63,403 nt of DNA from a virus (taxonomy: Duplodnaviria; Caudoviricetes), in IMG/VR virus record IMGVR_UViG_3300037882_001548, positions 1 to 63,403 of that record. One strand, 5' to 3'. The position numbers and the translations under genes are program-made. Below the pieces are notes generated by a model. It was not told the origin of the DNA. It did no database searches and worked only from the letters and a program-made list of their open reading frames with translations. Of this stretch, positions 8,905 to 59,756 are shown piece by piece; position 1 is the first letter of the stretch, and each line of letters opens with the position of its first letter.

Positions 8905-9648
8905 ATGTCAGTTAAAGAAATGCATTACGATTTTTTATTGAAATACGACAAGGTAGCTTCAAATCAAAGACGTAATTATACACCTGTTGAAATAGATTGG
9001 TTTCTGAATGAAGCGCAAAATGTATTTAAAAAACAACGCTTATTTGGTAATAATTCTAAGCAAACAGGATTCGAGGAAACTCAAAAACGCATTGATGATT
9101 TAGCTGTATTTCATGTTAAATATCCAGCACAACCTAAATCGACAGTTATCAAACACGATGATGTTGATGGAATTAAATTATATGAATTAAGATTAAATTC
9201 TTTAAAATATGAATATGAATACTTCATTAAAGGTTTTGTAACAGTACTTAAAAACAACTGTAAAATAAAAGCTAAAATGATACTTATTCAGAATGATGAT
9301 TTTGAAGAAAATATTAAATCTGCATTTGGATTAGATGAAGAAAATGTATTTATTAATTTTGGTAAATCTACTCAAGATAATGGATTAAATGATTTAAAAT
9401 CTATTTATATTTATTCTAAATATGATATAGATGAATCATCTGTTATGATAGAATATATTAAATCGCATGTACGCATTAATTATGAGCCATATGTTTATTT
9501 AGATAATTTATCGTATCCTGCAACAGATTCTCAATTTGCTAAAACAACACATACTGAAATAGTAGATATAGCAGTCATGCTGGCTACTGGAATAACAGAT
9601 AATCCACAATACAATGTGGCAAAAGAAAAATTGCTTGTCAACGAATAA
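8905..9648 (+). CDS. virion ring / head-tail adaptor protein
   Basis: EIDWFLNEAQ, GFEETQKRIDDL and HTEIVDIAV motifs resemble crAss-like ring proteins; synteny. Confidence 0.7.
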   Translation: MSVKEMHYDFLLKYDKVASNQRRNYTPVEIDWFLNEAQNVFKKQRLFGNNSKQTGFEETQKRIDDLAVFHVKYPAQPKSTVIKHDDVDGIKLYELRLNSLKYEYEYFIKGFVTVLKNNCKIKAKMILIQNDDFEENIKSAFGLDEENVFINFGKSTQDNGLNDLKSIYIYSKYDIDESSVMIEYIKSHVRINYEPYVYLDNLSYPATDSQFAKTTHTEIVDIAVMLATGITDNPQYNVAKEKLLVNE

Positions 9649-9685
9649 GTAATTTATATACATATATAATAAAACAATTTATAAA

Positions 9686-11044
9686 ATGTTTAAAAAATCA
9701 AATCGTAGAGCTTTCGCTAATTTCTTAGTTAATAAAAGAGGCGTGGCTATTTACAATACACCAAACACTACATTAACAGTACCTTCTACAAATGCAATAG
9801 TTGTTGCTGATGGTTCTATTGGCTTTTTTGACGCATCAGGTATGGGTTCAAAAGCAATCAATACATCATTAAATAACACGACTACATTAGCGCAGTCACC
9901 TGAATTTTTTATCTTACAAGGTAATGAAAACTCAGCTACACCGTGGGTTAATAATTCTACTGGTCCACTTTGGACACGTCCTTACGAGCGTTCTAACACA
10001 ATCGAAGGTCAAGGTATTATCAGTGTAACCAAGCAGTCTTACGCTAAACCTACACATTCTACGTGGGTAACAGGTGGTCCTGCTGGTGCTATTGTCGCTC
10101 AACCAAACAAAACATATCAATTGGGTGTTGCTTTTAGAGGTCATCAAATGGAAGAGTATTATTCTACAGAAGAAGCGTTGTATGTAAATGCATCATTTAC
10201 AACACCTGATTATGTAACTTTAGCTACACCACGTCCATTAGACCATATGATTCAAAACTTGTTGTATACATTTAATCGTAATTCATCTGAGTTAACAATC
10301 AACGCTGTAAATTTAAGAGGTAATTATCCAGTCATTGCATTTGCTGTTGATACAACAGGTGCTACGGGTACACTTATTTCTTCATTGACTGCTAATACGT
10401 TTTTACCAGTAGTTAATACACCAAACGGTGTAAAAGGTATTTATTTGACTTCTGATATGGTTGATTCATTAAAAGCAAGTATTACTGCATCAAATGCTAA
10501 TATTCCAGGAGCATCAATTATTACAATTGATTTAGCTACTGCGGGAGCACTTGCAGGTGGTAATGCCAACGCATTTATGACAATGGCTTTAGACAATCGT
10601 CCGGCATATTTTGATTATGGTACGAAATTTAAAAACCAAATCATTGTAGGTTTAACTTCTGGTTTTGACTCATCTGTTGTACGCAATAAAGAGTATTCAT
10701 TTGCATTTGAAGGACAAGGCACAGGTGTTCAATTAGATCGCATGTATCGCAATGACCACGGTCAGCGTAAATATGATTTAATTAATGTTGAGCATCCTAT
10801 TGTAGAATTCCCGTCACCTATTGACAAGACAGATACTTACAATATGTATGTTATCACACATCAAGCATCTCAAAGCAAAAGTATCAATCAAGGTTTTGAT
10901 TTCTTCCATAAAGAAATGATTTTAGTTCCTACATTGGTTAAAGGAGTTGTTGATGTTGCTGCAAATCCACAAGTAACTGCATTAGATTCATTCTTAAACA
11001 CTTATTTAGCTTCTGCTAATAAATCAGGTGTAACAGTAATATAA
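9686..11044 (+). CDS. abundant structural protein, probably auxiliary capsid protein (452 aa)
   Basis: T/N/A/G-rich, strong codon bias, no TGA, followed by a terminator; syntenic position after the ring gene. Confidence 0.6.
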   Translation: MFKKSNRRAFANFLVNKRGVAIYNTPNTTLTVPSTNAIVVADGSIGFFDASGMGSKAINTSLNNTTTLAQSPEFFILQGNENSATPWVNNSTGPLWTRPYERSNTIEGQGIISVTKQSYAKPTHSTWVTGGPAGAIVAQPNKTYQLGVAFRGHQMEEYYSTEEALYVNASFTTPDYVTLATPRPLDHMIQNLLYTFNRNSSELTINAVNLRGNYPVIAFAVDTTGATGTLISSLTANTFLPVVNTPNGVKGIYLTSDMVDSLKASITASNANIPGASIITIDLATAGALAGGNANAFMTMALDNRPAYFDYGTKFKNQIIVGLTSGFDSSVVRNKEYSFAFEGQGTGVQLDRMYRNDHGQRKYDLINVEHPIVEFPSPIDKTDTYNMYVITHQASQSKSINQGFDFFHKEMILVPTLVKGVVDVAANPQVTALDSFLNTYLASANKSGVTVI

Positions 11045-11071
11045 TCGCTTAAATTTAAAATATTAAGATAT

Positions 11072-11110
11072 AGGGAAGGTAATTAAAACTCACCTTCCCT
11101 TATTTTATTT
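11072..11110 (+). terminator. intrinsic terminator
   Basis: AGGGAAGGT (11072-11080) / ACCTTCCCT (11092-11100), followed by TATTTTATTT. Confidence 0.8.
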
Positions 11111-12335: not shown

Positions 12336-15300
12336 ATGTTAAAAAAATTAATTAATTTATTACAAATTACATTATTGCTGTTTGTAGCAAATTATACGCA
12401 GGCACAAAGTAATTTAACAGTTGCTTTAAAATATCAAGTATTTGGTACACCTACTATCAGCGGTAATAATTATACGATTAATGGTACAGTAAATGATGTC
12501 AATGGTGTTTGAAATGCAACCAATGTAGCTATAGGAGACTCTGTATTTTATTTGAATACAGGCATCATATATCCTATGGTTGTAACAGCTATTAATTCAG
12601 CTTCTGGTTCTGTATTAAACGTAACGGTTCAATCAGTACCACCTCTTGTATCTACATCAGGTACAGGTAATGTAGGCGGTCAATTGGCTATATCTCGACC
12701 TACTACGAATGATGGTTGTTCAGTTCCCAGTGATTTGAATGAACCACTGAAATGAGCTATGGAAAATAGAAATCGTCAATGGCGTACTAAAACAGGTCCT
12801 CCAGAAATCACAAGCGGTACAACAGAGCCTAATTTAACGATAACTACTGCCGCTAAAATTGGAGATAAATATATACAAACAAGCGATTCAATCACTTGGG
12901 TTAAAACAGGTGCTACTACTTGGGCAGTAGAAACAGGTATAATCAATAGAACAACAACACCTGTTTTTCAAGGTATTCTTGCTGTTCAAACAATTGGAGG
13001 TATTACATATATTCGTAAAAATTTAGGGCTTCGTTATCCAACAATGAATAATAATGTATTTTATTGGAATGATGCTGCCAATGCTTATGAATGTAATAAT
13101 TTTATTAGTGCTGTTGACCCATTGTTTTATAAGGTTAATGGTGCTGTAGGAGTTCAAGATACCTTGTTAGTAAGAAGTTATACAGTATCTAATACATTTC
13201 CTGTTGTAATAAAAGATTTTAATTTAAATACAGCAGTATGAGAAGAGCGTAGTACAAAAGCTGAAACAAGTATATCAGCTACGATTCCTACATCATCAGC
13301 AGGTATGAAAGACGGAGATTTCATCAGAACAAAAAATGCAACAGATAGTGTATTATGGCAAGTAGTTGGTACAAATAAATTTAAAGCTATTGGAGTTTTT
13401 TACAAATCCACAGAACCTGTTAATACAGCTACTAATGATTATACAAGTGCGATTTGGCAAAATCCAAGCATTTCAGTTGTTGCTGGAGAAACAGTTGATT
13501 TTACATACCAAAATAATAGGTGGGTAAATGATAACCTAAATCTTGAAAATTACGGAGCAAAAAAAGACGCTAATTCAAGAGCGGCATTACTGCAAAATAT
13601 TTCACTTTCAAAAGTAATAAATGTTAAATCGGGTAATTATCTGATTGAATCAGAGGTTTTAATTAATAAAGACAGCTTACATTTTAAAGGCGAACAAGGA
13701 GCAACGTTTAAATTTAATACTTCATCACAGCAACGAATGTTTCGCTTAGAGTCAAAAGGGGTAGTTTTTGAAAATATCATTTTTGACGGCAACGATAAAG
13801 AGGTGCTTTATAGCCTTGTATATGCTCATAATAATGCTACCGTAAAATTTGTAAATTGTAAATGGATCAATGTGAAAGGTGTTCACGCAAACGGATTCAA
13901 TAATACAACTAATGTTCAATATGGTTTCCAAATGTCAACAGAAGGGGCGGAGGTTGATATTGAGAACTCAGAATTTAAAAATATTACTAATACTAATTTA
14001 GTCAATATTGAAGGGGTTGGTTTTTGTGGGGGTATTGCTACAATATTTGATAACTTTATAGAACCTGCGGTTCAGTTAAAATCGGCGGTTTTGAATGTGT
14101 CTAACACCAAGTTTTCAAACATTCAAACAATTATGAACACGGGATTATCAGTAGCGGATAATATAAAATATGATGATGCAGACGGCATCAGATTTTATAG
14201 TGAAAAATTATTTACCGTAAATTCTTTTATCAGCGATTGCACGTTTGAAAATATTTCAAAGCGAGCTGTTAAAAATAGTGATGTTAAAGGAGTAACTATA
14301 TCTAATATAAAAATATCACATTATAATATGCCTTATCCAATGGTGAATCCTGTCAAAATTGCATCACGGATGACTATTAATAACTTAGATTTTAAGTCAG
14401 ACCAGCCTTGTGAAATATTAATACAAATACACACTTCCTCTGATATTGCGGTTACAAACGTTACAGCAAACAAAGTTAAATATGGAATTGTTTTTACGCC
14501 TTTGACGGCTAATGACACAATAAGAAATATTTATTTTGATAATATTAAGATGGATACTGTTTTGATAAACGGCACTATTAGTTCTACGGTACATGCAAGA
14601 GTTGACAATATAAAATTTAATGCTTTGTTTATAAATGGTATTGGGGCCACAACAATCGGATTTGCTCCTCCCGTTCAGTCTGATAATAAAGAATTTTATA
14701 CTTTAACAAATTCTTTCTTTAAAAATAGTGCTGTTAAAATTTCTGGAAATGGCAATGTTGATAATATAAATATATTAATCGACAATCCTTTATTCAAGCC
14801 TACTTTAAACGGTGTATTGGAAAGTAATACTGTTTCTGTAAGTGATGTAAAAATGAAAGTTGAAAGTATAGACTTGACTTTTAAAACCGCAAGTAATTTT
14901 CTAATGTATTTCTACGGAACTCAAACAACTGTCAAAGACATAACGCTTACGGTTGCTGATGCCGTTGCCGTTTCAAGCTATGAGGCAGCCTTAAACGGCA
15001 GTTACTCAAGCTATGAAAATATAACTTATAACGGTATAGGGAAAATGATGTTTGGCTGGTTTTCAAACGCGAATCCAATTAAGAAAACAATATTTACAAA
15101 TGTTGTAAGACGAACTATAAATCAACTCCCTACAATAAACTTTTTAGAGGCTTATCTGATAGACAGTTGTAGAATGAACAGTATTATTGATTATTCGCCT
15201 AAAAACAACGGGTATGTTATTTACTTGGAAAATAACGCTAATAATAATAGATTAAACAAAGTAGTCGGCTTAATGTCAAGCCCAATTAATAATGCTGGTA

Positions 15301-15590
15301 CTAATAATATTGATGAAGGTTCAATATTAATTTCAGCACTTCCAAAAGGGGTAGCTACAACTATTTTAGGTACAACTCAAACAGTTACTTTAGATATAGC
15401 TCCAGCAATAGGAACAGATGCGAGTAGATTTGAAGTGGTTTTAGAAGTGGCAGGTAATAGACAAGTACAGTTTCCTATTTCATTAGATGCTACAACAGGT
15501 TATACGCTTAGTTTTAGTGGTACAACAGTAACAGTTGTTTTTGTTAATTCAGTAGCAGCAAGTGGTAAAATATATGTAAATCAACATTAA
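12336..15590 (+). CDS. tailspike-like protein with right-handed beta-helix (pectate-lyase-like) domain and N-terminal signal peptide (1084 aa, code 4)
   Basis: ATG 12336, MLKKLINLLQITLLLFVANYTQA|Q. Three in-frame TGA join the fragments. From ~13530 LENYGAKKD, FENIIFDGN, DADGIRF and N/I/V ladders typical of beta-helices. Confidence 0.75.
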
Positions 15591-15656: not shown

Positions 15657-17363
15657 ATGAAAAAAATATTAATATTGTGTTTTACCCTGTTTTCGTTGGG
15701 GTTGAATGCTCAGTTTATTGTTCAGTCTCCTACGGTTACAAGTCTAACTTCGGGACGTGTTATCGCATTGCTTGACCTTGCATCTGTTACACATATCAAT
15801 ACAGACCCTGGCACAAAGATACCATTTACGGGTACTATCTACACAAACGGAATGACTACCAATGCGGGAAGCATTACGCCAAGTCAAACAGCTAAATATA
15901 GGGCTGATTGGTTGTGTGTGTCTCCAAGTACGGAATTTCTCGCAGATGGTATTTTTCATGTTGTGCAAAACGGTGTTAGTGTCGGTCAAGTTTCATACAA
16001 TATGAACGAGGCAAGTGCGGTAAATCAATGTGCTGGTTTTATAGATGTTGATTTAATAGCAGGGCAAGAAGTTAGCTTACATTATCGTACACGACATACG
16101 ACAACAGACGGCATCGGTTGGGATAGAGGTAGTTATTTTCAATTGACGCAATTACCTACTGCTGTTGCACCTGTTATTGATGCGGTGGCGGAGTATGGGG
16201 AAAATAATGGTATAACTGATAATCAAACTGTTACAACAACATTAGCTGATGTTGCTGGTTCTTCTTTCACATTACCAAGTGCAGGTGTATGGGAAGTTAA
16301 GTATGTAGTTGAAACAAATGTTACAAGTACCAATATGACAGTTGGTTTATACACATTGAGTAACATTCTTTTAGCAAATTCACAATCGCTTAGTGGAGGA
16401 CAAAGTACCGTCAGGGGTATTGCTTCTCAAATTTCATTTATAACCACAACAGGCTCAGAGGTTTATAAACTTCGTGCTTCTGTAAATACAGGGACAGCGA
16501 CTATCATAAACGGTAATATAGCTGGGTTACAATCTAATTCAAAAATTACTTATCAGAAAATTGCAGGTGGTTTACCTTCAACTGGTCAAACAGTAGATAA
16601 ACTTCACGTAAGGCAGAACACAACACAAGGAGCACCTACTGTTAATACTATTATTAATCTTGAAGGTATTGTAAGTGGGAACATTCCTTTTGCAAACAAT
16701 ACAGTAACTTTAGAAGCTGGTAAAACTTATTTGTTGGAAGGAACTGGGGCTATAATGGCAGGGGGTTCTTCTGCTTATGGTACAAGATTTTTTAATGTTA
16801 CGACTGGACAATTTTTTGGAGAGAGTAGTTATGCTATTTCACCAAATAACGGTAACACAGCTACGTTTGTTAGTAGAACAGCTGTTGCTGAAATTACACC
16901 AACTGTAACAACACAAGTGCAATTAAGAGTTGACCTTTTAGCTGGTGCTGCTGGAACTATTGGCGGTTCTAATTTAGTAAATACTGGCAACGGTGCTGGG
17001 TCTAATCAAGACCCTAATGGTGCATCATGGGTTAGAGTTACACAACTCGGTTCAACCTCTAACACAGTAGGAACTCTACCAGCAGTAGACCAATCATCAG
17101 CAGGATACTTTGACATAGGAAATATGCGGATGCAATGGGGTTCAACAGGAAGTGTAGGTTCTGGTTCTTTTATTACACTTCCTGCACCATTTGCAAATTC
17201 TAATTACGCAATAACTTTAACACCTTTTGCAAGCGGTACAAGAATAGCAAGTGTTTTTTCTACAACGGCTACTACTTTTCAAGTAACTGGGTGGGAAGTA
17301 AATTCACCTGTTGGTGGTATTGCAGTAAATGCAAAATGGATTGCAATCGGTCAACGTCCATAA
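15657..17363 (+). CDS. fibre/receptor-binding-like protein with signal peptide, several C1q-like beta-sandwiches and a C-terminal tail-fibre tip-like domain
   Basis: MKKILILCFTLFSLGLNA|Q. Repeated units (ITPSQTAKY, FTLPSAGVW, VTLEAGKTY). C-terminal GYFDIGNMRMQWG...ITLPAPF...WIAIG typical of phage fibre tips. Confidence 0.7.
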   Translation: MKKILILCFTLFSLGLNAQFIVQSPTVTSLTSGRVIALLDLASVTHINTDPGTKIPFTGTIYTNGMTTNAGSITPSQTAKYRADWLCVSPSTEFLADGIFHVVQNGVSVGQVSYNMNEASAVNQCAGFIDVDLIAGQEVSLHYRTRHTTTDGIGWDRGSYFQLTQLPTAVAPVIDAVAEYGENNGITDNQTVTTTLADVAGSSFTLPSAGVWEVKYVVETNVTSTNMTVGLYTLSNILLANSQSLSGGQSTVRGIASQISFITTTGSEVYKLRASVNTGTATIINGNIAGLQSNSKITYQKIAGGLPSTGQTVDKLHVRQNTTQGAPTVNTIINLEGIVSGNIPFANNTVTLEAGKTYLLEGTGAIMAGGSSAYGTRFFNVTTGQFFGESSYAISPNNGNTATFVSRTAVAEITPTVTTQVQLRVDLLAGAAGTIGGSNLVNTGNGAGSNQDPNGASWVRVTQLGSTSNTVGTLPAVDQSSAGYFDIGNMRMQWGSTGSVGSGSFITLPAPFANSNYAITLTPFASGTRIASVFSTTATTFQVTGWEVNSPVGGIAVNAKWIAIGQRP

Positions 17364-17395: not shown

Positions 17396-18985
17396 ATGAA
17401 AAAAATAATTTTATTATTGACAATCTTAATACCGATATTAGGTTTTGGGCAATTTGTAAATAATAGTCCTCAATTAACACAAGCGCAAATAGATAGTTTT
17501 TCTCGATTGGATTCGAGTGGAAACTTAAAAGGTGGTGCTATTAATAATTGGGAATTACCTTCTATTATTAATCCCCTTAGTAATCAAAAAACATTGACTG
17601 TGGCTATAAGTAAAGGTTCGATGACAGAGGCGGCACTTACTGATTCTGTTGTACTTTTTGACCCTATCACAAAATCTTATAAGCGAATGTTGGGTTCAGA
17701 TTTAAGAGGAACTCAATCAACTGTAACAGGAAATGAAATAGTTTTTAACAATTGGGATAAAAATTCGGCGGATGATTTTAACGGAGTTTATGGAAATTTA
17801 ACAGGTATTCCTTTAAGTTTTACTCCCTCAGTACACAATCATACTATTGCAGATGTAACAAATTTACAAAATAGTATTGATGCTAAGTTGAATGTTACTG
17901 ATACAAGTTTATACAATTCAAAATCTTTAACACTTGCACAATTAGCAACCAAACAACCACTTGGAACATACGCAAGCGGTACGGGTTCAGCAACAGGTAT
18001 TAATACAGGTGACAATGCCGCTAATACGACTTATGCAAATGACTATCGAGCAGCAAACTTTATAGCGGGTACAAATTATCTTGCACCTAATGGCAATGGT
18101 AGTGCTTTGACAGGATTAAGTCAAAGTCAAATTGCTAACTTATCTACTGATTTAGCAAGTAAGCAAGCAACTTTAACAGGTTCTGAAACTATTTTCAATG
18201 GTTGGGATAAAGACGCATCTAATGATTTTAGCGGTGCGTTTAGTGCATTAACGGGAATTCCAACAACTTTTGCACCCGCTACACACACGCATACAATAAG
18301 CGATGTAACAGGATTACAAAGCGCAATAGATGCGAAACAACCTAATTTAGTTAGTGCAACTAATATAAAAACCATTAACGGTAATAGTATTTTAGGTGGT
18401 GGCGATTTGGCAATAAGCGGAATATCGCAAACCGTTTTAAACGATACATCAATAGCGATTAGAAATAATTTGAATTTAAAAATAAGTGCGTCAGATACAT
18501 CTACAAATTATAAGGTGATGACTCGTGCTAAAACAGATGCTCTATACGTGCCTACTCGTTCTTTTGTAGCTGGAGGAAGTGTAAATTCAACAACTACACA
18601 AGCAGCTATGTTACAATCTGATTTTGCAGTTATAGCGGGAGGGCGTTATCGTTTCAAATATCAAATTAGATATTCCTCAGCAGCAACAACAACAGGTGCA
18701 GCATTCGCTTTGTTCGGTAATGCGGATGTAATATCGGCTTCAATCATTCAAACAAATGCTAACAGCACCACATCTTTAACACAAAGTTTTTCTGGGACTA
18801 TTGCAGCAGCAACTCCTTTTTTAACATCAACATCTTCAAAGTTAACAAACAATGTTGCTATTATTGAAGGTGAAATTGTGGCAAATGCGAACGGGTTTTT
18901 TCAATTGTATTTTGCAAGCGAAGTGGCTGCATCGGCTATTACAATATTAGCTACATCAAGAAAAGAATTTTTAAGAATAGAATAA
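17396..18985 (+). CDS. tail-fibre-like protein with signal peptide and HxH fibre repeats (529 aa)
   Basis: True start is ATG 17396, MKKIILLLTILIPILGFG|Q (the ORF-track start at 17291 overlaps the previous gene). HNHTIADVTNLQ and HTHTISDVTGLQ repeats; NIKTINGNSILGGG fibre motif. Confidence 0.75.
   Translation: MKKIILLLTILIPILGFGQFVNNSPQLTQAQIDSFSRLDSSGNLKGGAINNWELPSIINPLSNQKTLTVAISKGSMTEAALTDSVVLFDPITKSYKRMLGSDLRGTQSTVTGNEIVFNNWDKNSADDFNGVYGNLTGIPLSFTPSVHNHTIADVTNLQNSIDAKLNVTDTSLYNSKSLTLAQLATKQPLGTYASGTGSATGINTGDNAANTTYANDYRAANFIAGTNYLAPNGNGSALTGLSQSQIANLSTDLASKQATLTGSETIFNGWDKDASNDFSGAFSALTGIPTTFAPATHTHTISDVTGLQSAIDAKQPNLVSATNIKTINGNSILGGGDLAISGISQTVLNDTSIAIRNNLNLKISASDTSTNYKVMTRAKTDALYVPTRSFVAGGSVNSTTTQAAMLQSDFAVIAGGRYRFKYQIRYSSAATTTGAAFALFGNADVISASIIQTNANSTTSLTQSFSGTIAAATPFLTSTSSKLTNNVAIIEGEIVANANGFFQLYFASEVAASAITILATSRKEFLRIE
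17711..18337 (+). repeat. two ~58-aa internal repeats in the fibre gene
   Basis: TVTGNEIVFNNWDKNSADDFNGVYGNLTGIP...HNHTIADVTNLQNSIDAK and TLTGSETIFNGWDKDASNDFSGAFSALTGIP...HTHTISDVTGLQSAIDAK. Confidence 0.85.
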
Positions 18986-19015
18986 CATTATATATAAATA
19001 TATTAAAAAAACAAA

Positions 19016-19324
19016 ATGAATGATTTAACTTTCAAAACACTATTCTTAGGCTTTCTGGGGGCACTTGGTACAATTGTAGCTGCTTATATAGGTAAGTTAT
19101 TATTAACGCCTAACGAACGAATAAAACAGCTTAATGAGATTATAATACAGCATACTGAACTGATTCATGATTTAACAAATCAAGTGAGAGAAGTCATTAC
19201 TGAAAATTCTATTTTAAAGAAAAGAATTTCTGAATTAGAAGATGAGTGTAGATTGCTGAGAGATGAAAACAATATATTAAAGCTTAAAATAAATTCTAAT
19301 TATGATAATAACAAAGACAAATAA
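19016..19324 (+). CDS. small membrane protein with coiled coil (holin-like candidate)
   Basis: One N-terminal hydrophobic helix (LFLGFLGALGTIVAAYIG) followed by a heptad coiled coil; lies between fibres and endolysin. Confidence 0.5.
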   Translation: MNDLTFKTLFLGFLGALGTIVAAYIGKLLLTPNERIKQLNEIIIQHTELIHDLTNQVREVITENSILKKRISELEDECRLLRDENNILKLKINSNYDNNKDK

Positions 19325-19718
19325 TTACACATACATTATAGATTTACCACCTGCTATAAAAGCCTTATATACATCAACATCTGTTCAGTTAAATAAGGTA
19401 GAGTTATCTCAGACTCTACCTTATACTGTAACTTTACCTACAGGCATAAGCGAAGTTAAAATTACATTAAAAAGTGCAAATGGTTCGTATGAAGAAAAAG
19501 CATGTTTTTTATATGATGATAATTTACAATGTAATTTAGCGACACACTTGGCAGCTCTGGATAAAGAAAAATTAACTAATACGCAACTACCTTATTTATA
19601 TTATATGTTAAAAGAAGGTACTACAGATATAAACGATTGTGGATGTTATTGTGATTACTTATTGAAAATATATGAAGACATAAATAAACAAATAAACAAT
19701 TCAGATTGTAACTGCTAA
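19302..19718 (+). CDS. Cys-rich hypothetical (probable virion) protein
   Basis: 138-aa ORF with DCGCYC and terminal DCNC. Confidence 0.55.
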   Translation: MIITKTNNYTYIIDLPPAIKALYTSTSVQLNKVELSQTLPYTVTLPTGISEVKITLKSANGSYEEKACFLYDDNLQCNLATHLAALDKEKLTNTQLPYLYYMLKEGTTDINDCGCYCDYLLKIYEDINKQINNSDCNC

Positions 19719-19719
19719 C

Positions 19720-20523
19720 ATGAAAATATCAACAGCTTTAGATAAATTAAAAACATATTACGAAAAACGTAAAATAGGTATTGATTGTAAAGAATCAAAA
19801 GATAATACTAAAGAGCTGGTATTACAAAATTGATTGAATACAATTGACTGCGAAATAGAAGAATGTATAGAATGTAAATTTAATAAAGTAATTGATGTAA
19901 ACTGTACACCTACAATTAAACCATGTTTATTTACATTACCCAATATAACAATATCTCATAATTCATTTACCAACAAAGTGCATGTTAAATTCAATATTAT
20001 TACAACACTATCAGAAATACCGAAAGATGATAAAATAGAATTATTATTTATAGTAAATGGTTCTATTGTAAGCACTGATATTGTCAATCTAAGCGTAGAT
20101 AAATATTATTCTATGTCAGCTACTGATTACATAAATAAAACTATCCAAATAGCTATTAAATCTAATAATTGTTATAGTATTTCTACTCCTACTAAATTAG
20201 GTATAAAAACAATTCAATTAGGTACTTTCAATAATTGTTTTTTATATACAAACGAAGCTTTAATAACAGCACCTTTAATATTAACAAATGTAAATTTAAA
20301 TCAAATATTTATAAGTAATATAAACTTATTTGTAGACGGTATTCAAAATACAAATTATACAGTAGTTATAAATTCTTTAGGTACGTTAGTTATTACTTAT
20401 CCAAGTTTATCAGCTAATCAAGTAATAACAGGTTTCATAGAGTTTCAGCAATACGGAGATACTGTACCATTTTCACATATAGATTTTACAACCAATCAAA
20501 CAGATAATTTATACTGTTCTTAA
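19720..20523 (+). CDS. hypothetical protein with Cys-rich linker and Ig-like C-terminus (267 aa, code 4)
   Basis: ATG 19720 directly after the previous TAA; TGA at 19831 is in frame with ORF 19834-20523. Confidence 0.6.
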
Positions 20524-20546
20524 CAATAAATCAAACACTTTTATAC

Positions 20547-21557
20547 ATGCTCACTTATTTCATATTAACATTGATAATTCTGGTAATATTGACATTACTT
20601 TTTTATTTCATTATATTGAACCCTGTTCCTACTATTGCAACTAAGCATCCAGAAAGCGACACAATAAACAAACAAAATAACAAATTCATTGATACGGTAA
20701 GTAATACAGAAGCTAATGTAATACGTCAAAATATGAAAACAGGTAAGCAAACTAAATACTGCTTAGCTTTCGGTTTGAATAAAATAAACCCTGATGTATA
20801 TAATGGAAGTAATGGATTATTATATGGTGCTGTAAATGATGCTAAACATATAACTGATTACTTAAAGAAAGAAAAAGAATTTGATGTCGTTAAGTTATTT
20901 ACAAATGAAGAAGCTTCAATACAGTCTTTTATAAATGCTTGAAAGTCAATTACAAATAACTTAAAAAAAGATGACGTGTTTGTATTATATATGTCCAGAC
21001 ATGGCATCATGCTTCCAAATAATACAATGGATGATGATAAAGAAAAATCAGGTAAAGATCAAGCAGCCGTAATGTATGATGGTTGTATATTAGATGATTG
21101 TATCGGTAGATTAATTCAATCTTTACCAGAAATTACATTTATATACATCAATGATTCTTGTCATTCTGAAACACAATATAAACTATTACCTGATTTAATT
21201 GATGGTAAATTAACAATCAGTAAATCATTAAGTAAAGATTATGTACCGAGTAAAAATAATATACTTGATATAGTTCAATTAGAATCTTTGTTTACAAAAC
21301 AAGATTATAAACAAAGATGTACTGTTATATCACTTGCATCATCTTTAGATACACAACCATCACTGGATGTTCAATTGAATGGTGTAGCACAAGGATTATT
21401 TACTGGCACATTACTTAAAATACTTAGAGACAATCCTACTATAAGAGTTAAAGATATTCAAGCTCAACTCAGAAAACAAATAGGTTATCAACAAACACCT
21501 GTTGTTCAAATAGAAGGCTTAAATACTAAAAAAGTAAGTTCTTTAAAGCTATTTTAA
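20547..21557 (+). CDS. membrane-anchored metacaspase/caspase-like protease (peptidase C14; 336 aa, code 4)
   Basis: N-terminal TM helix. C14 motifs LYGAVNDA, YMSRHG (His at 21000), NDSCHS (Cys at 21159), GLFT and QTP. The two ORFs are joined by TGA at 20940. Confidence 0.85.
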
Positions 21558-21610
21558 TATTAAATAAACAATAACTAAATAAACTAAATTAAAAATAATT
21601 ACATACACAC

Positions 21611-22081
21611 ATGGGAAAATTACTATTAAGTGTATTACCACTTAAAACAATATTAAACTTTATCTTTAATACAGAACAATTTCAAAATGCCATCATATAT
21701 TTATTTATGAAACCTTTTGAAAAAGTAAAAGATAAAAATCCAGCTTTATATAAAGCGTTAAATGATTATGTTATAGCATTCGCTAAAATACCATCTATTC
21801 AAACAGACGATAATCCAGACAACGTTTCACAATATATTGATTTATTTAAATTATCACAAGTAGAATCATTAAATAAAAATTTACAAGATTCTAACTCTAT
21901 GTTAACAAAAGCGATGAATGCGACGGTAGAAACTAAAAAAGGATTAATGTTAGACTTAGGTATGATTACACCAGCTAAACAAGAAACATCAACTGCTGTC
22001 AATATTGAAAGCTTAAAAAAATATAGTGCGCCAATTAAATCAGTTACACCATTAACAGGTGGTTCTAAACGTAAAAAATAA
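21611..22081 (+). CDS. hypothetical protein, translationally coupled to the endolysin
   Basis: 156-aa ORF with amphipathic N-terminus and basic C-terminus; TAATG overlap with the endolysin start. Confidence 0.6.
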   Translation: MGKLLLSVLPLKTILNFIFNTEQFQNAIIYLFMKPFEKVKDKNPALYKALNDYVIAFAKIPSIQTDDNPDNVSQYIDLFKLSQVESLNKNLQDSNSMLTKAMNATVETKKGLMLDLGMITPAKQETSTAVNIESLKKYSAPIKSVTPLTGGSKRKK

Positions 22082-22713
22082 TGGATATTAATTACACAAA
22101 AAAAGTAATATCATCAGCCAAAGCATTATGTCGATTAAAACCTAAATCATTAGACAAGCAATTTAAAGCTGACGAATTTCATACCAAAGGATTAGAGGAT
22201 ATTTTTGCAACAGCATTATCTTATGTAGGTCAACAAGAAATACCAGGTAATCAAGGATTTAAGAATCCTAAGTTTGAAGACGAAATGACAAATGTAGGTT
22301 GGTTAAAAGGAGAAGCATGGTGTGCTACATTTGCTAAGTTGGTATTTAAAAAAGCTTATGCTGATAAACCTACAACACAATTAGAACTTGAAAGATTGTT
22401 TTCTAAATCAGCTACTCAAACATATTCTAATTTTGATAAGTCAGATTGGAAAACACAAAATCCAGATGGCACACCTATTAAAAAACCAGTTAAAGGTGCG
22501 TTAGCTGTATGGCGACACGGAGATTCTTGGGCAGGTCATATCGGTATTGTTATTGAAGTTAATTTAAAACAAGGTTATTTTAAAACAATAGAGGGTAATA
22601 CAAATGCGTTTGGTTCAAGAGAAGGTATTCAAGTGGCTGTTAAAGAACGAAAGATGTCACAGCCTTATTCAGATAAAGGATTAAATTTAATTGGTTTTGT
22701 TTATCCTAAATAA
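22081..22713 (+). CDS. CHAP-domain endolysin
   Basis: AWCATF (catalytic Cys), GHIGIV (His) and TIEGNT. Confidence 0.88.
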   Translation: MDINYTKKVISSAKALCRLKPKSLDKQFKADEFHTKGLEDIFATALSYVGQQEIPGNQGFKNPKFEDEMTNVGWLKGEAWCATFAKLVFKKAYADKPTTQLELERLFSKSATQTYSNFDKSDWKTQNPDGTPIKKPVKGALAVWRHGDSWAGHIGIVIEVNLKQGYFKTIEGNTNAFGSREGIQVAVKERKMSQPYSDKGLNLIGFVYPK

Positions 22714-22745: not shown

Positions 22746-22790
22746 AGGGTTGTCGTGGTGTATATCTCACGCAACCCTTTTCTATTTTAT
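22746..22790 (+). terminator. intrinsic terminator after the endolysin
   Basis: AGGGTTG-T-CGTG ... CACG-CAACCCT followed by TTTCTATTTTAT. Confidence 0.75.
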
Positions 22791-22839: not shown

Positions 22840-23526
22840 ATGACTAATCTTAGAAAACATACGGATGCACTTAAAATAATCATAGGTCGGTCCAGACCAT
22901 CAGATGATTTTCCTTATTCATCATCTTTTTTATCACATCTTATATACAGTATAGGTAGTAAAGTAATGAAAGATAAAATGGATAAAGAAGGTATGTTATC
23001 AGAATTTAATTATACTTCTTTTTGTATAGACTTAATTGATTCAACATTTGCACAGTGTGCGTGTGTAGAACAAAAAGGATGTACAGTTAAGCGTAGTTCT
23101 ATTAAATTACCCAATGTATTATCACCACAATCATCAAGTGTTAAAGTGTTAAATTTTAATGGCGAGACAATAGATTCCATTAATCCTGATTTATATAAAT
23201 ATTCTAAATACAGTGAAGATAAATATACAGGTTGATTAATACATGATGATTATTTATTTATCATTGGTGATACTGATATAGAACATGTTATATTTAAAGC
23301 TATCATAACTGACTTAACAGCTCTTGAATCACTCAATACATGTAATAATGAGGGTAATAATAAAGGTATCTGTATGATGCTTGAAAACGGCTTTAAAATA
23401 GACGATGATTTAATTGAAGAAGTATACAAAAGAGTTTTACGCTTATTGGGTTATAATTTCAATACTAATTTTGCGAAAGATACCAAATCAGATAATTATG
23501 ATAACACGACCCATTCCAATATATAA
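22840..23526 (+). CDS. tail ring protein (228 aa, code 4)
   Basis: SDD motif near the N-terminus and C-x-C...C...RS...LP pattern as in crAss-like ring proteins. TGA at 23233 read through to TAA at 23524-23526. Confidence 0.65.
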
Positions 23527-24118
23527 ACCAATTTATAAAAGTTTAAAACATCGTTTTTTTAAAACATTACCTTTTAGATTTGACTTTCATAATTCTAATA
23601 CATGAAGTATGATATGAAGTTACAGTGATATTTGAACATTATACGCATTGGATAAAATGTACACTAAGCAAGAAATTAAATTTGATAAAAAAGAATTTGA
23701 TGGATTTACATCATACTTTCACAATTATATATTAGCCAAATCAGTTGAAACAGGAAGAGTTTATCAAATGCCTTATGATGCAGGTTACATAGCTACACTA
23801 ACTTACGCATCAGTAGATACAAAGAACTTTAATTTCTTAGATTTAATGGATACTGAAAAAGCGACAGAGTATAAAAAATTACTAATGCTTTCTAATAGAG
23901 TACCTCGTATAAGTTATTTAAGAGTTAAAAATATAGCTAAAGAATACAATTTAGATAAATCAGATTATTTTAGTATGGATTATCTTAAAACAGAGAACAT
24001 GAAAACATTTAGAAGAACTGTAGACATAGATAATTTCAATGTATTTCAAACATACTTACAAAAAAAACATTTACCTAAACTGGTGTATGTACCTAAATCA
24101 ATTAAAACAAAAGCTTAA
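23498..24118 (+). CDS. hypothetical protein, possibly the IHF/HU-like protein of the crAss tail module (206 aa, code 4)
   Basis: Three TGA within 11 codons (23603, 23615, 23633), in frame with ORF 23648-24118. G..YQMPYDAGYI segment and position between ring and tube genes. Start uncertain (23498 or 23609). Confidence 0.45.
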
Positions 24119-24927
24119 TGAAAACAAATTATGTACCCATACAGTCAGTGCTTTTAGATTTATCTTTAATGGTTGATTCATCTCAATGAAATGAATATGC
24201 TGTAAAAAATTGAATACTTAAAGCACTACGTAAAACAAACACCAATGCTGTATTAGAACAAGTTCAGTGCATCATGAGTATAGAACAACATAAGGGAGAA
24301 CTACCAAAAGATTACAAATACATCAATCAATTATTCTATATAAACCCTTTTAAAATAGGTTTAACTAAAACAGTAGAAGAACAAATTAAACGTTGCTTAA
24401 ACAGTCAAAAAATACCGTCTACGCTGCTTGCTAATATTAAAAAGAAAAATGCATTAGAACCGATGCGATTAAGTATTAGTAATAGTTTCGGTTATGATAA
24501 TGTAAATTGCTGTGAATATGATTATAAGATAAATACAGATGGTGTATTAGATACAACACTTAAAGATGGTTACGTATTAATTTCTTATTTACGTTATCCT
24601 AAATCTAATGTAGGTGATGTATTAATTCCAGACAATGAAGATTTAAAAGAAGCACTGTATCATTACTGTATGTATAAACTATTGGAATCTAAAATAGGTT
24701 TAATTGGCAGCACAGATTATAATAAAATTAGATTTATGCGTGAAGAACGTAATTTTCATTTATCTCAATTTCAAGTATTGAAAACAAAAGCAGCCGGCGA
24801 TTTAAATATGCCTGATGAACAAGAATATGAAAACATTATGCAAAATCAAAATAGATTAATACCTATTCAAAATATGAGTAGTTCAGGTTTTTCAAGATAT
24901 GGTCGACATATTCAAAGTAACATATAA
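24118..24927 (+). CDS. tail tubular/ring protein (269 aa, code 4)
   Basis: TAATG overlap at 24116-24120 and two TGA (SQWNEY, KNWILKAL). Motifs GELPKD and LIPD...KEALYHY; directly upstream of the muzzle gene. Confidence 0.7.
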
Positions 24928-24943
24928 ATTCAACTAAATAAAT

Positions 24944-27900
24944 ATGAACAATTCAGAAAAAATATTAGGCAATAATGTATTTCAAAAAGGTATGAATACG
25001 GATAGCTCAATTGCGTTTAGTGATGATAGTGCTTATTATTATGCGCTTAACAGTGTACTTGAAACAAGTGAGGGTGATCAAGGTGCTATAAGCAACGAAA
25101 TAGGTAATTTGATATGCTGTGACTTAAAAAAAGATTATAAAATCATAGGTCATAAACTGATGACAGACGATACATTCTGTTTATTTTCTACAAATAATAT
25201 AAGTTCTGAAATAGGTATATTTGATAGTAAATTATGTAAGTATACTGTTGTTATAAATGATGTATGTTTAGACTTTAATAATTGTTTTCCTATATCCGCT
25301 TTATTTAGAATTAAAAATGGTTGTGATAGAATTATATATTTCACAGACAATAGAAACGTATATCGCTCAATTAATTTAGATGATATCAAATCTTATTATG
25401 ATGGATCTAATTTAATATGCTCTCGATTAAATTTTTCACCCGATGTTAAATGCGGTAATATTGAAGTATCTGAAATAAAAGAATCAGGTGGTGAATTATT
25501 ATTAGGCAGTTATCAATTTTTTATAAGATATTTAGATGCTGATTTAAACAGTACTAATTGATTATACAGCACACAACCTGTATCTATTATAAAAGATTCA
25601 TCAGACTTATTATACAGTGAAATAAGCGGAGGTAAAAATTTAATTGATAGTACAAACCAAATCGGTGTATATACGCCTACAAGTAAAGCAATTACTCTTA
25701 AAGTCAATAATTTAGATACATCTTTTGTATATTATCAATATGCTATCATAGAAAAAACACAAGGTATTAATACAATATCAAATGTAAAACTATCTAACTA
25801 TATTCCTATAACACAATCTACTTATACGTACACAGGTACAAATACAACAGGTAATATAAGCATAGATGATATAATTATAGACAGTTCAGTAATTGAAAAA
25901 GTTAAAACACATGTTCAATCAGACAATAGGCTTTTTTTAGGTAATCTAAGAGATTTAAAGACATATGATTGAATTAAAGTACAACAAGCAGCATTGGATA
26001 TTAAAGTGTCTTGAAAGTCAAATAAAGTAGCTAAAGAAGCTAAAACAAAAGGCGACCCTAAGATGAGTATTACTTATGATAACAAATCATACATGCGAGA
26101 TGAAATATACGCATTTGCTATACGAGGTCGTTTTGCAAATACAAAGACAACACCTTGTTTTCATATTCCAGGTAGACCTTCTATTCAATCATCAAACTCT
26201 AATTATAACAATTGAGTTAATTTAGGTAATTTAAATAACATATATAATTTAACTAATACTGTTACAGCAACTAATGCTTTAGATTATCAAGTAGCTGGAT
26301 TAAGAGAAGTTGTATTATCAGTGTCACAAAATGATTGAGATAAAGTTATCATAAATAGTACAACAAATAGAACTATACCAAATCAATTTAATTTATCTAC
26401 TTATATAGATAATATAAAAGCGTTATCAATAAATACAAGTGAACCAAGATGGAAAATATTTAATACGGGTATTGTTACGGATGTAGATAATACAAATGGT
26501 ATTTATAAAGGTCAGTTGGCTTATTATGAATCATCTGAATTATATCCAGATGTACAAGACTGTGATGGTCAAAAATTATATGGTGCGCTTACAGGAACGC
26601 CTATCAGACATCATAAAATAATTGATGGTAATAGTTTTCCGCATATGACAAGAGATTATGATAAAGGTCATATATTACCTATATCATTAGAATTTAATAT
26701 ACAGTCATTCATAACAAACCTAACAACCACATATCCTGATTTAGTATCTGATATTATATGTTGGGAAATAGTACAAGCAGAAAGAACTGAGGATAATAAA
26801 ACTATTTTAGATAAAGGCATAACTACATTTAGAGAAGCTTCTCAATATTATTATGGCTCTACTTTAGATAAAAGAAGTTTTATACAAAGTAGCAATGAAA
26901 CAATTCATGGTGCTAATAATTCAACACTACTTAATACAGATACTGTTAGATTTTATTCACCTAAAACACTTTTAAAAAAGAACCTTAATCCAAGTTATTA
27001 TAAAGTAGAAAACGCATCACTTTTTCAAAATTGAATGCCTATGGATTGGGATTTTGATTATGTTAATACACCATCTTTAACAGATAGAGTTGGTTTTTAT
27101 AAGTATGCACAATCGACTAAAGAACCTTATGATAATATATCGCATTTATGGTCAGATTATTTAGATGGCATACCCATAGCCAAAGACCCTAATGCAACAA
27201 ATAACCGTATTGTATTTCCTTCTAATATCAAAATAGATGCTACAACATATATAGACAGTGTAAGTAAATATGAACCATATGCTTTTACACAAGCCAGCTT
27301 AGGAGATTTAACAAGTGGTCAAGTACGTAATTATAATTATTCACCACACTGTTTTCAAATCAAAGGTAGGTTCAGAGATTTGTTTGGTATCAACGGTACA
27401 AATACACAAATAGACAAACCGATGATTACGTACGGTGCATTGAAGAAAAACATAGAACCGTATAATGAATTAACAAGTATTACATATTTTGATGTAGCGC
27501 AAACTAAAACAGGCAATACAATTGAAGTACGTGGAGGTGATACTTTTATTACACCAATGGTTGTTGAATTAGCTAATAGAGGTGCTGGATGAAAAGGTGC
27601 TCCTGGAGAATGAAATCAAAACTTTCCAGCTAATACTGATGAAAATTATAGAAATCATCATCAATTTATATTCACGTATGTAGAAAGTGATATTAATTTT
27701 GGATTAAGAAGTAATTCTAATAAGAATCCGTTGTTTGATGATGAAACGAAAGACTTTGATGACTATACTGATGGTAGATATTTTTCACATTTATGACCGT
27801 ATTTAAAAACAATCAATGATACGCATCCAGTAGGTAATGTAAATTATACTAATATTATAGTACCTGCTATGACTAAGTATTTTTTATTTCAAAAGAAGAT

Positions 27901-29461
27901 TAGTCTTATAGATAATCAACAGCAGTTAATCAATCAGTTTATAGATTATAATCAAGATTATTCTAATCATGGTTATAGTAAACCTTATTATAGCTTACCA
28001 TTTAATTTTGATTATTGTAAAGATTGTCAAAATACTTATCCTAATAGAATAGTATACTCAGAAAAGAGTTTTCAAGAACTGCGTAAAGATAGTTATAAAA
28101 ATATTAAACCTAATAATTACGCAGACTTAAATGCTGCATTAGGTGAATTAAATCATTTGTTTTTAGACAAAGATAAATTGTATGCCTTGACAGATAAATC
28201 ATTGGTATTTATACCTATTAAAGCACAAACAATTAAGACAAATGATGCGTTGGTATATTTAGGTACAGGCGATATCACATCTATACCACAACAAGCTATA
28301 ACAACAACAGAGTTTTCTTATAGCGGTACCAAAGATTATTTAACAGTTCAGAATACAGAGTTTGGTACAATATATTATAATAAAGATAATAGAACTTTAT
28401 TTATGTTGTCCGATGGACTTAAAGAATTAACGATGAAAGGTATGCGTAGATTCTTTAAAAAACATGGTGGATTAAATATCAATAAAGATATGATTGATAT
28501 TTACATGAGAGAATATCCTTTTAGCGATAAATATTATTACCAAGATGGTATAGGTTTTACATCGGGTTATGACCCGTTGAATAAAAGATATTTGTTAACT
28601 AAAATAGATTATAGATTAACTAATTTGGCTAAAACTAAAATAGCTGATGGTTTATTAGAATTTGATTTTGTTACTAAAAAATGAATGTATGTTGACGACA
28701 TTAATAATCCAATATCTATTTCAATTGAAATGCGTTACTGACCAGATTTATTTAAAAATATAAGCTGAACAGTAAGCTATGATTTAATCAGAGATTGTTT
28801 TGCGTCGTTTCATTCTTACATACCTGAATATTATTTAACCAACAATAATACTTTTTTTACTTCTAAGAGTATATCAGCAAACAAAGGTGATACAAGTATA
28901 TGGAGACATAATGTAGGCTTATATCAAACATATTATGGTAATAAATTTAAACACGTATTATGGTTTAATATGAATGAGTCTGGTTTTCAAGTTAAAGTAT
29001 TTGAAAGTATTCGATTATTTACTAAAACATGATTGCCTGTAAATAATACATTTAATAGAATAGAGAATAAAACGTTTAATTCTGTTATCGCATTTAATTC
29101 TAAGCAATCAACTGGTCTTCATTTAATTAATGTGGTTAAACCAAATAACGGATTTAATTTACCAACTACACTAAATACCAATATCCAATGTAGTTATATT
29201 GAAAATGCTTTTTATTTTTCTAACTTACGAGATTATGCGACCAAAGCAGGCAATGATGATAATCCAGTAAATCTATTATGAGATGATGATTATTTCTTTG
29301 GTGAAGAAAATTTATTGAATACCAACTTTAATAAATCACCATTTGAATTAGAACGTATGCGAGACCAATATTTATCGGTCAGATTAGAATCACTGCATTC
29401 AGAAAATTATAAACATTCAACAGATTTAATATCTACTAAAAATAACATATCTTTTAGATAA
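24944..29461 (+). CDS. tail stabilization / muzzle protein (1505 aa, code 4)
   Basis: All fragments share one frame with at least 10 TGA. crAss-type motifs FQKGMNTD, IYFTD, DNRLFLGN, YMRDEIYAF, IRHHK, GGDTFI, NRIVYS and SFHSYIP. TAA at 29459-29461. Confidence 0.85.
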
Positions 29462-59314: not shown

Positions 59315-59756
59315 GATGCGGAGTCCAATTTGATTTATAATAACGTTTCCAGAATCTTGATAATGTACCACCTAATGGTGGAATTACTTTTGATTTTTCT
59401 TTAATAAAACAATGAAGGGTTATTGTTTCAAAAAATTTATCTTCAAGCAAAGGATCGTAGTTACGACTAATATGTTTATAACCTAAATTTATAAACTTAT
59501 AACCTTGTTCTAAGCGCATAACTTTAGACATTGTCCAAATATCTTTTATACACCATACTTCACCTTGTATGGGTCGTTTCAGTGATTTATTAGGATACAT
59601 GATAGGATAATATCCATTACTGTATAAACCATATCCGTTTATTTCTTCATGGCAAATAAATTCAGCATTGTTTAAAAAATGATTGTTAGACATACCTGAT
59701 TTAAGTGTACCATATACGAATAAATATAATGGGTATTTGATATCTTCTAATTTCAT
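59307..59756 (-). CDS. gamma-glutamylcyclotransferase (AIG2-like) family protein
   Basis: LFVYGTLK, YP, IQGEVW and LE.GY motifs. Confidence 0.85.
   Translation of the reverse strand: MKLEDIKYPLYLFVYGTLKSGMSNNHFLNNAEFICHEEINGYGLYSNGYYPIMYPNKSLKRPIQGEVWCIKDIWTMSKVMRLEQGYKFINLGYKHISRNYDPLLEDKFFETITLHCFIKEKSKVIPPLGGTLSRFWKRYYKSNWTPHHV

Follow-up and report, generated by a model that had tools for sequence, protein, structure and literature searches.

A gene for a membrane-anchored protease of the caspase family, followed directly by a gene for a small partner protein, lies beside an endolysin gene in a crAss-like phage, and this protease–partner pair recurs in unrelated phages, within lysis cassettes that differ in their type of endolysin, a conservation that is a new result. 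The DNA analysed here (hereafter the window) is 63,403 bases long and constitutes the entire linear IMG/VR virus contig IMGVR_UViG_3300037882_001548, whose completeness is put at 64% by CheckV. By sequence profile, modelled fold and catalytic dyad, the product of the gene at 20547–21557 is a genuine C14 (caspase/metacaspase-fold) peptidase with predicted catalytic activity, and among these it appears to be of the metacaspase-like kind found in bacteria (orthocaspases), an active-type cysteine protease of clan CD.

The C14 identity had been proposed in an earlier prediction made from the letters of the sequence (hereafter the original prediction), and is borne out by a profile search, in which Pfam PF00656 matches with an E-value of 3.2e-15 and 56.9 bits against a cut-off of 21.4, over profile positions 7–227 of 233; a six-frame search of the contig gives 57.5 bits. 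When PDB sequences were searched with phmmer, GSU0716 (3bij, E 2e-12) ranked first and was followed by metacaspases 4 and 1, with the SRHG of the window protein aligned opposite SGHG, and its DSCHS opposite DSCHS. The proposed His/Cys dyad is intact, with His152 in SRHG (21000–21002) and Cys205 in DSCHS (21159–21161), and H152, G153, D183, D203 and C205 are invariant across 65 aligned sequences.

A structural model was generated with AlphaFold2 (AF2) from a 65-sequence alignment, and shows the expected caspase-haemoglobinase fold (predicted local distance difference test score, pLDDT, 86.9; predicted template modelling score, pTM, 0.79). It consists of a helix at residues 2–24, a disordered linker at residues 33–49 and an alpha/beta domain, in which H152-G153 follows the strand 144–150 and C205 follows the strand 197–202. 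A Foldseek search with this model returned 3bij at the top (E 4.8e-17, template modelling score 0.77 on the target), then AtMC9, AtMC4, Yca1, TbMCA2 and MALT1, and the matches to 3bij, 9n3d, 6w8r, 4f6o, 4afr and MALT1 all have a probability of 1.00. The N-terminal helix, residues 2–24, is the most hydrophobic segment of the window (Kyte-Doolittle score 3.19), in agreement with the transmembrane (TM) anchor originally proposed.

The single TGA codon of the gene (20940–20942, codon 132) precedes both catalytic residues, as had been noted, and public gene calls made under the standard code break it into two fragments, one of 108 (P0003) and one of 188 amino acids (P0001). A HMMER search of 1.84 billion representatives gave 2161 matches at E ≤ 1e-3 and only nine at E ≤ 1e-30, two of which are these fragments of the window itself. 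The close group (P0002 and P0004–P0012, 30–42% identity in the alignment) shares the motifs MSRHG, GDQAAVMYDG-x-IVDDC and INDSCHS-x-TQYK, and most of its members possess an N-terminal hydrophobic helix. At the column of the TGA codon, the nine close relatives that cover it have Trp in six cases, Phe or Tyr in two and Ile in one, and the metagenomic loci that cover it all have Trp, encoded by TGG (4/4). These features suggest that the protease belongs to a rare phage-borne subfamily.

A pattern scan of GTDB, with one genome per species, yielded 26 pattern matches and no confirmed close relative. The window protease has no tblastn match among 50,697 GenBank phage records, and hence no cultured phage relative was found there; two remote phage C14 queries each matched only one uncultured 485-kb record of that set. 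Scanning IMG/VR recovered no close relative of the protease, nor any of the tail ring protein 2 of the window. The metagenome scan identified eight loci with close protease relatives (33–39% identity, standard code, GC content 43–52%). Since L026, L027 and L032 are the same or near-same phage, and L029 and L030 overlap, these correspond to about four lineages besides the window.

The protein encoded at 21611 is the conserved downstream partner of this TM-anchored C14 subfamily, an association that is new here. In a tblastn comparison of all 25 window proteins with the eight metagenomic loci, matches were obtained only for the protease (8/8) and for the 21611 protein (5/8), and wherever tblastn finds a homologue of the latter it is immediately downstream of the protease. 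Reading of the open reading frames (ORFs), combined with alignment, adds a partner in L025 and L031, and L030 ends within the protease, so that a partner follows the protease in all seven metagenomic loci with downstream sequence. The partner family comprises 11 clusters, including that of the window, among 5.8 billion; one member is on a 90-kb contig, and another is seen on 15 contigs. Its members are 109–156 amino acids long, with an amphipathic N-terminus and a basic, alternating C-terminal stretch, and share the motifs R-[VL]-K-G-L-K..P-x-x-Y and P-x-I-x-T-D-[DE]-[DN] (P-A-I-L-T-D-D-D). A scan of IMG/VR for this family gave 203 pattern matches, none of them confirmed.

The partner has no match in Pfam, PHROG, NCBIfam or the defence models and no usable match in the Atlas, and neither a signal peptide nor a TM segment is predicted. 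In its AF2 model (pLDDT 56.7), which is too poor for a fold search, only residues 11–60 are predicted with confidence, as a helical hairpin. The original prediction had put this protein forward as a substrate, and from its position it is a reasonable candidate substrate or regulator of the protease. In the relatives, two-TM proteins encoded near the pair (L025 519–898, L027 9241–9782 and L030 8594–9279) carry KLKIKP and KLKPKL in their C-terminal tails. The resemblance of these tails to the KLKLKL-type stretch of the partner could reflect a recognition motif shared for a Lys/Arg-specific protease, or could be due to chance.

All three relative lineages with upstream sequence (L027, L030/L029 and L025) show the same gene order, in which the pair closes the cassette: a Peptidase_M15_3 endolysin, a TM-coiled-coil protein (71–99 amino acids), a small protein (75–127 amino acids), a two-TM holin-like protein (∼100 amino acids), the TM-anchored C14 protease and the partner. 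The M15 domain is identified by Pfam in L027 and L030, and in L025 it is a C-terminal fragment with 76% identity to that of L030 over 50 amino acids; annotated endolysins of Pelagibacter and Caulobacter phages are among the matches of the M15 protein, as are many records of Bacteroides phages. A lipoprotein gene follows the partner in L026/L027, and a gene for a fibre-like repeat protein follows the pair in L031. The L026/L027 phage, whose protease–partner cassette is the closest among those in the standard code, is not crAss-like, and no other gene is common to it and the window. On L026, the minus-strand gene 9609–11093 encodes a T5 A1-like DNA-transfer protein with 38–40% identity to those of Flavobacterium 'elemo' phages and Maribacter phage Panino, which suggests Flavobacteriia as the probable host class. 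As this phage is otherwise unrelated to that of the window, the pair seems to have moved between phage types, probably infecting Bacteroidota.

More remote C14 genes (22–29% identity) were identified at 23 IMG/VR loci, which have no other gene in common with the window. In the best of these, L002 (29% identity), the C14 gene and the end of a wall-hydrolase gene overlap; the hydrolase matches TIGR02594 with 80.6 bits (cut-off 70.55), and a lipoprotein gene precedes this overlap. Adjacency to endolysins of three kinds is thus observed: CHAP in the window, M15_3 in the close relatives and TIGR02594 in L002. In L009, L010 and L012, a TIGR02594-like gene is located ∼4 kb upstream of the C14 gene, with fibre-like genes and a lipoprotein gene in between. 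The neighbours of the remote loci were checked with few lysis proteins and limited family scans, and the remaining loci are therefore unsurveyed rather than negative. The linkage to lysis that the original prediction expected of related phages holds for the window, for the close relatives with their M15 cassettes and for this one remote locus, and does not extend to several remote C14 genes found in non-lysis contexts; it is supported by association.

Within the window, every feature listed by the original prediction is present where it had been placed (Table 1). The protein encoded downstream of the partner matches the CHAP domain of Pfam (PF05257, E 1.5e-9, 38.6 bits against a cut-off of 26) and PHROG endolysin families, and retains Cys81 and His146/His153 of the domain, which places it among the CHAP endolysins. 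It is 32% identical to annotated Streptomyces-phage endolysins, and scores 37.7 bits against TIGR02594, under the cut-off of 70.55. The TAATG coupling noted earlier is confirmed, the last A of the TAA stop codon of the partner gene being the first base of the CHAP ATG. The terminator proposed after the CHAP gene had not been listed by a simple pattern scan, but folding of the RNA reveals its hairpin and U-run.

Table 1. Features of the protease gene block and of the Crassvirales genes identified in the window.
Feature	Position	Strand	Remarks
Crassvirus major capsid protein	6308–7789		PF23898, 236 bits
102-amino-acid protein	19016–19324	+	N-terminal TM segment 4–22 (Kyte-Doolittle 1.71), then C-terminal coiled coil
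138-amino-acid protein	19302–19718	+	7 Cys, clustered C-terminally; no family
267-amino-acid protein	19720–20523	+	9 Cys; open only with TGA codon 38 (19831–19833) read through
TM-anchored C14 peptidase, 336 amino acids	20547–21557	+	One TGA read as Trp
156-amino-acid helical orphan, protease partner	21611–22081	+
CHAP peptidoglycan hydrolase, 210 amino acids	22081–22713	+	Likely endolysin
Intrinsic-terminator-like hairpin (GC-rich) and U-run	22746–22789 (about)	+	Closes the gene block; dG -21.8 kcal/mol, z -4.35
Tail ring protein 2	22840–23526		Pfam
Ring protein 1	24118–24927		Pfam
Muzzle protein	24944–29461		Pfam

The first gene of the block, at 19016, had been described as holin-like. The architecture of a small protein with one weak TM segment and a coiled coil stands, but no holin family is matched in Pfam, PHROG or NCBIfam; the protein has only sub-threshold coiled-coil matches in Pfam and a single known homologue (85% identical), and 2.7 kb, or four genes, separate its gene from the CHAP gene. 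In the cassettes of the relatives, the endolysin is followed by a TM-coiled-coil protein of the same architecture, and a weak hhalign match to it, in register at the TM end, was obtained (probability 12.6%, E 0.0023). The next two genes had been called Cys-rich, and their seven and nine Cys are indeed present, but the enrichment is modest, at 5.1% and 3.4% Cys. Neither the 19302 protein (Pfam, PHROG) nor the 19720 protein (Pfam, PHROG, NCBIfam) matches a family in the collections searched. The N-terminal ∼110 residues of the former may form a beta-sandwich, a lead that comes from Atlas structure matches to CBM48/PKD-like parts at template modelling scores of 0.5–0.55. The third-codon-position GC content (GC3) of the block is 0.12–0.22, the same as in the rest of the contig, and nothing in its base composition indicates that it was acquired recently.

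Upstream of the block, three consecutive plus-strand genes (12336–15590, 15657–17363 and 17396–18985) encode large fibre-like proteins. All three begin with Sec-type signal-like peptides, consisting of MKK and a hydrophobic run and ending in AQ or GQ, and a similar Sec-type start is seen in a 341-amino-acid protein encoded upstream of the M15 endolysin in L027 (7359–8384). Such starts are odd for virion proteins, which are expected to assemble in the cytoplasm.

The window contig is that of a crAss-like phage: the Crassvirus capsid, tail ring 1, tail ring 2 and muzzle proteins are present in conserved order, the other Crassvirales Pfam scores being 62.9 (PF25702), 85.7 (PF24228) and 138.8 bits (PF25731). 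The nearest cultured relative is Flavobacterium phage FpV4, whose capsid protein is 31% identical, and whose gene order is syntenic with that of the window. Between its fibres and Ring protein 2, FpV4 carries genes for gp20, annotated as 'peptidase', a DUF7103 protein and a Phage_holin_4_1 protein (18147–20766). FpV4 gp20 has no Pfam match, and gp20 and gp21, which occupy this analogous slot, proved unrelated to the C14 protease and its partner (hhalign probability ≤0.1%). A GH108 endolysin is annotated upstream of the large terminase gene (TerL) of FpV4, whose lysis genes are thus located at two sites.

Long frames in the window are open only if TGA is read through. The 37 ORFs counted contain 91 in-frame TGA and 87 TGG codons, and end in TAA (34) or TAG (3), never in TGA. 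Sense TGA codons occur in 24 of them, on both strands, with 71 TGA to 72 TGG in the plus block and 20 TGA to 15 TGG in the minus block (55.5–63.4 kb), which holds a PD-(D/E)XK nuclease gene. The FpV4 residues opposite window TGA codons are W (6), Y (5), F (5), K (2), L (2), I (1), M (1) and G (1), with one gap. As W, Y or F is found at 16 of these 24 positions and G at only one, TGA is read as Trp, and a reading as Gly (code 25) was rejected, also in view of the Trp at the protease column in six of nine close relatives and in all four metagenomic loci that cover it. No tRNA gene was found in the window, so any phage-encoded suppressor would have to lie in the third of the genome that the contig lacks. 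Usage of TGA and TGG is very uneven between genes (permutation p ∼5e-5). Only TGG is used in the genes for the capsid, two fibres and CHAP, and in 9686, 31469 and 59307 (minus strand), and TGA is almost exclusive in TerL (3 TGA, 0 TGG), portal (8, 1) and 60337 (minus strand; 6, 0). This uneven pattern is real, but does not single out the protease.

In order to predict specificity and control, residues of the metacaspase TbMCA2 were used, for which PMC4357240 lists Cys92, Asp95, Ser156 and Asp211 in the S1 pocket, and Asp173, Asp189, Asp190 and Asp220 in the Ca2+ site. As mapped by motif and by the AtMC4 alignment, without direct structural superposition, D98 (Asp95), S150 (Ser156) and D203 (Asp211) of the pocket are kept in the window protease, as are three of the four Ca2+-site aspartates (D171, D183 and D184). 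The full Ca2+ site is therefore not present, and control by Ca2+ would be possible. The loop that follows Cys205 is disordered in the model (residues 214–223, pLDDT <50) and rich in Lys and Arg in the relatives, and as such would suit self-processing by an Arg/Lys-specific enzyme. In full-length family members, the anchor begins at residue 1–8, without a positive n-region. In six of the ten full-length members with a strong TM segment, Lys and Arg occur only C-terminal to it, the positive-inside pattern of a protein with its N-terminus out and a cytoplasmic domain, suggesting that the catalytic domain is more likely cytoplasmic.

These observations can be accommodated by a membrane-proximal proteolytic step that would time or reinforce lysis, with the protease and its partner forming a mobile two-gene module of lysis cassettes, a reading to which I give an even chance. 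In this scheme, a hydrophobic N-terminal helix and a flexible linker would tether the protease to the host inner membrane, with the catalytic domain presumably facing the cytoplasm, and the module would travel among phages of probably Bacteroidota hosts, inside lysis cassettes and beside the endolysin. The enzyme is predicted to cut after Arg or Lys, and may be controlled by self-cleavage in the basic linker after the catalytic Cys, perhaps also by Ca2+. Late in infection, its targets at the membrane would be the partner, the basic tails of holin-type proteins, or both, and their cleavage would time or reinforce lysis.

A number of observations weigh against this reading. The functional role would be assigned through guilt by association, and the three M15 cassettes are mutually homologous, so that they represent one evolutionary arrangement and not three. 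Most of the 23 remote C14 loci lack both the TM anchor and the partner (the anchor is absent from 11 of the 23, which were inspected for ORFs), and the remote C14 genes of L003, L007, L008 and L013 are found beside replication or packaging genes; phage C14 genes at large are thus not tied to lysis. No multi-TM holin is recognisable in the window by a hydrophobic-segment scan, and the CHAP protein may not be the main endolysin, since FpV4 encodes its endolysin upstream of TerL and that region is absent from the 64%-complete contig. The mapped sites also differ: the position of TbMCA2 Cys92, which is Cys in relatives and metacaspases, is Ala95 in the window protein, and the fourth Ca2+ Asp is replaced by Lys212, seven residues after Cys205, and is not Asp in the relatives either (TbMCA2 sites from PMC4357240). 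Finally, in three of the ten full-length members the TM segment is flanked by no Lys or Arg and followed by an acidic stretch, and another of the ten is a multi-TM protein.

The alternatives differ mainly in what the protease would cut, and where. A bolder version of a lysis role casts the pair as a lysis device triggered by proteolysis, following the caspase–gasdermin logic but encoded by a phage, in which the enzyme would wait at the inner membrane face and be switched on late by self-cleavage of its linker, perhaps co-activated by ion influx through a leaking membrane. It would then cut at Lys/Arg-rich motifs of the small amphipathic partner or of holin-type tails, and the membrane-active fragment set free would commit the cell to lysis. 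I consider this quite unlikely. The link to gasdermins drawn in the original prediction was not borne out, as only a weak, generic PADLOC 'caspase' match (21.7 bits) was obtained and no gasdermin-fold partner was recognised. Caspase-like proteases also act in bacterial defence, and the window protease might instead serve counter-defence or host takeover, cleaving host proteins such as abortive-infection or pore-forming effectors, or membrane sensors; its proximity to lysis genes would then reflect shared late expression and no common function, with the partner serving as inhibitor or adaptor. In favour of this, the window and FpV4 differ in what they carry between the fibres and the Ring proteins, variation of the kind usual for accessory genes; the module is mobile among phages that are not related, the weak PADLOC match (E 2.4e-5) was obtained, and remote phage C14 genes occur in non-lysis contexts. 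However, tight linkage to endolysins of three families recurs, as the TAATG overlap in the window, the gene overlap in L002 and the operon in L025, L027 and L030, and no gene of the block matches a known anti-defence family in Pfam, PHROG, NCBIfam or PADLOC. On balance, a counter-defence role is unlikely, but a serious alternative.

A different location for the catalytic domain is implied if the protease processes envelope or surface proteins. A periplasmic domain could trim exported phage or host proteins, such as the fibre-like proteins, tethers between the outer membrane and the wall (in a spanin-like role), or the phage receptor, the last leading to superinfection exclusion. The Sec-type starts of the fibre-like proteins at 12336, 15657 and 17396 and of the 341-amino-acid protein of L027 would fit with this, as would the C14 genes that follow fibre-like genes and a lipoprotein gene in L009 and L010, the fibre-like repeat protein after the pair in L031, and the acidic, Lys/Arg-free stretches after three of ten anchors. 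On the other hand, the anchor lacks the positive n-region of export signals, six of ten members follow the positive-inside rule for a cytoplasmic domain, and the partner has neither a signal peptide nor a TM segment. In addition, because the signal-like peptides of the fibres end in AQ or GQ and not in Lys or Arg, cutting of the fibre N-termini by the protease was set aside. Envelope processing is a doubtful proposition, but, like counter-defence, a serious alternative. The remaining alternative concerns translation: the protease would be gated by the genetic code, with product made only after a code switch, and in the extreme it would be an inert, decaying passenger gene. The original prediction had argued that active protease requires TGA read-through and that the endolysin does not. 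This is correct as far as it goes, the CHAP gene having no in-frame TGA and TGG at all five of its Trp codons, and the TGA of the protease preceding both catalytic residues; recoding of lysis genes as a timing device has also been proposed (10.1101/2021.08.26.457843). However, the argument is weak, because the protease has a single Trp codon, and because TGA is a sense codon in 24 of 37 ORFs, on both strands, and ends none of them. As minus-strand replication-side genes use it too, there is no clean early/late split in the window. The absence of TGA among the five Trp codons of CHAP has a chance probability of 0.028 at the genome-wide TGA share of 0.51, before correction for 37 genes. Furthermore, the residues of catalysis and of the pocket are kept, and the corresponding codon is TGG in the relatives, whose code is the standard one; this argues that the gene is under selection, and that its function in most carriers is independent of recoding. 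Translational gating is therefore very unlikely, and a proteolytic step that times or reinforces lysis is the reading I favour.

Other parts of the contig show some unusual features. Two giant plus-strand ORFs, 33454–50214 (5586 amino acids, 18 in-frame TGA codons) and 50235–55466 (1743 amino acids, 14 in-frame TGA codons), are placed where crAss-like phages encode large virion proteins; the latter has no Pfam match. The first ORF of the contig (112–2568, plus strand) appears chimeric. Its residues 1–143 correspond to the N-domain of a superfamily 2 (SF2) DNA helicase (ResIII E 3.3e-21; 38–40% identity to annotated phage helicases), residues 166–230 match a LAGLIDADG homing-endonuclease model in a segment that terminates in HNC, and residues 282–756 align with the large terminase of FpV4. 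It is either an intein-bearing gene, or an assembly jump between two intein-containing genes at the contig end, which would also explain the contig break there. In the replication-side block, the minus-strand gene 59756–60115 encodes a 119-amino-acid protein with a coiled-coil body and a hydrophobic C-terminal segment (residues 100–118, score 2.36), the features of a tail-anchored membrane protein.

Comparison with known systems illustrates what is shared and what is particular to the pair. Like the orthocaspase GSU0716 of Geobacter sulfurreducens (3bij), the window protein has a single domain with a His/Cys dyad. It differs from GSU0716 in being encoded by a phage, in having MSRHG for SGHG and a conserved GDQAAVMYDG-x-IVDDC block, and in its partner gene and lysis-cassette setting. 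With the eukaryotic metacaspases AtMC4, AtMC9, Yca1 and TbMCA2 it shares the fold and, as mapped, the acidic S1 positions and three of four Ca2+ aspartates, and the basic disordered linker after the catalytic Cys is a feature of self-processing type II metacaspases. However, identity to these enzymes is 16–20%, and the window protein lacks the type I prodomain, the long type II linker and the fourth Ca2+ Asp, and is membrane-anchored. An N-terminal TM helix in front of the domain is common in bacteria, being reported for 46 of 398 single-domain sequences in PMC3501461.

Bacterial gasdermins, too, are activated by caspase-like proteases, and the concept is common to both: a C14-type protease genetically coupled to a neighbouring protein, with membrane failure and cell death as the outcome in the gasdermin systems. 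Here, in contrast, the partner is a helical protein of 109–156 amino acids without detectable similarity, and the module is carried by the phage and not by the host. The setting resembles canonical lysis cassettes of holin, endolysin and spanins, with an endolysin (CHAP, or M15_3 or TIGR02594 in relatives), small TM-coiled-coil and two-TM proteins, and a lipoprotein; to my knowledge, no described component of such cassettes is a caspase-family protease. A full-text literature search, with subscription journals and supplements outside its scope and papers judged by their titles or the opening of their abstracts, found no published description of a caspase-family lysis module in phages and no report of a metacaspase in crAss-like phages; the abstract of a 2026 sponge-virome preprint does name a metacaspase. 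As for the genetic code, recoded crAss-like phages read TGA as Trp or TAG as Gln, and the window matches the recoding described in 10.1101/2021.08.26.457843, but its use of TGA in the minus-strand replication-side block as well departs from a pattern of early standard and late recoded genes.

Phage lysis is known mainly from a few model systems of holins, endolysins and spanins, and the lysis machinery of Bacteroidota phages, including the abundant crAss-like group, is largely uncharted. A tethered protease with a small partner is a specific candidate, cheap to test, for a new step in the control or execution of lysis, and, as far as the literature searched shows, this is the first functional setting proposed for a phage-encoded caspase-family enzyme. 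Should the protease serve in counter-defence, it would even then be a protease weapon of a type new to phages. If instead it proves to be the trigger of a lysis device, it would found a new class among the regulators or effectors of lysis, one that has so far been seen only in phages whose hosts are probably Bacteroidota.

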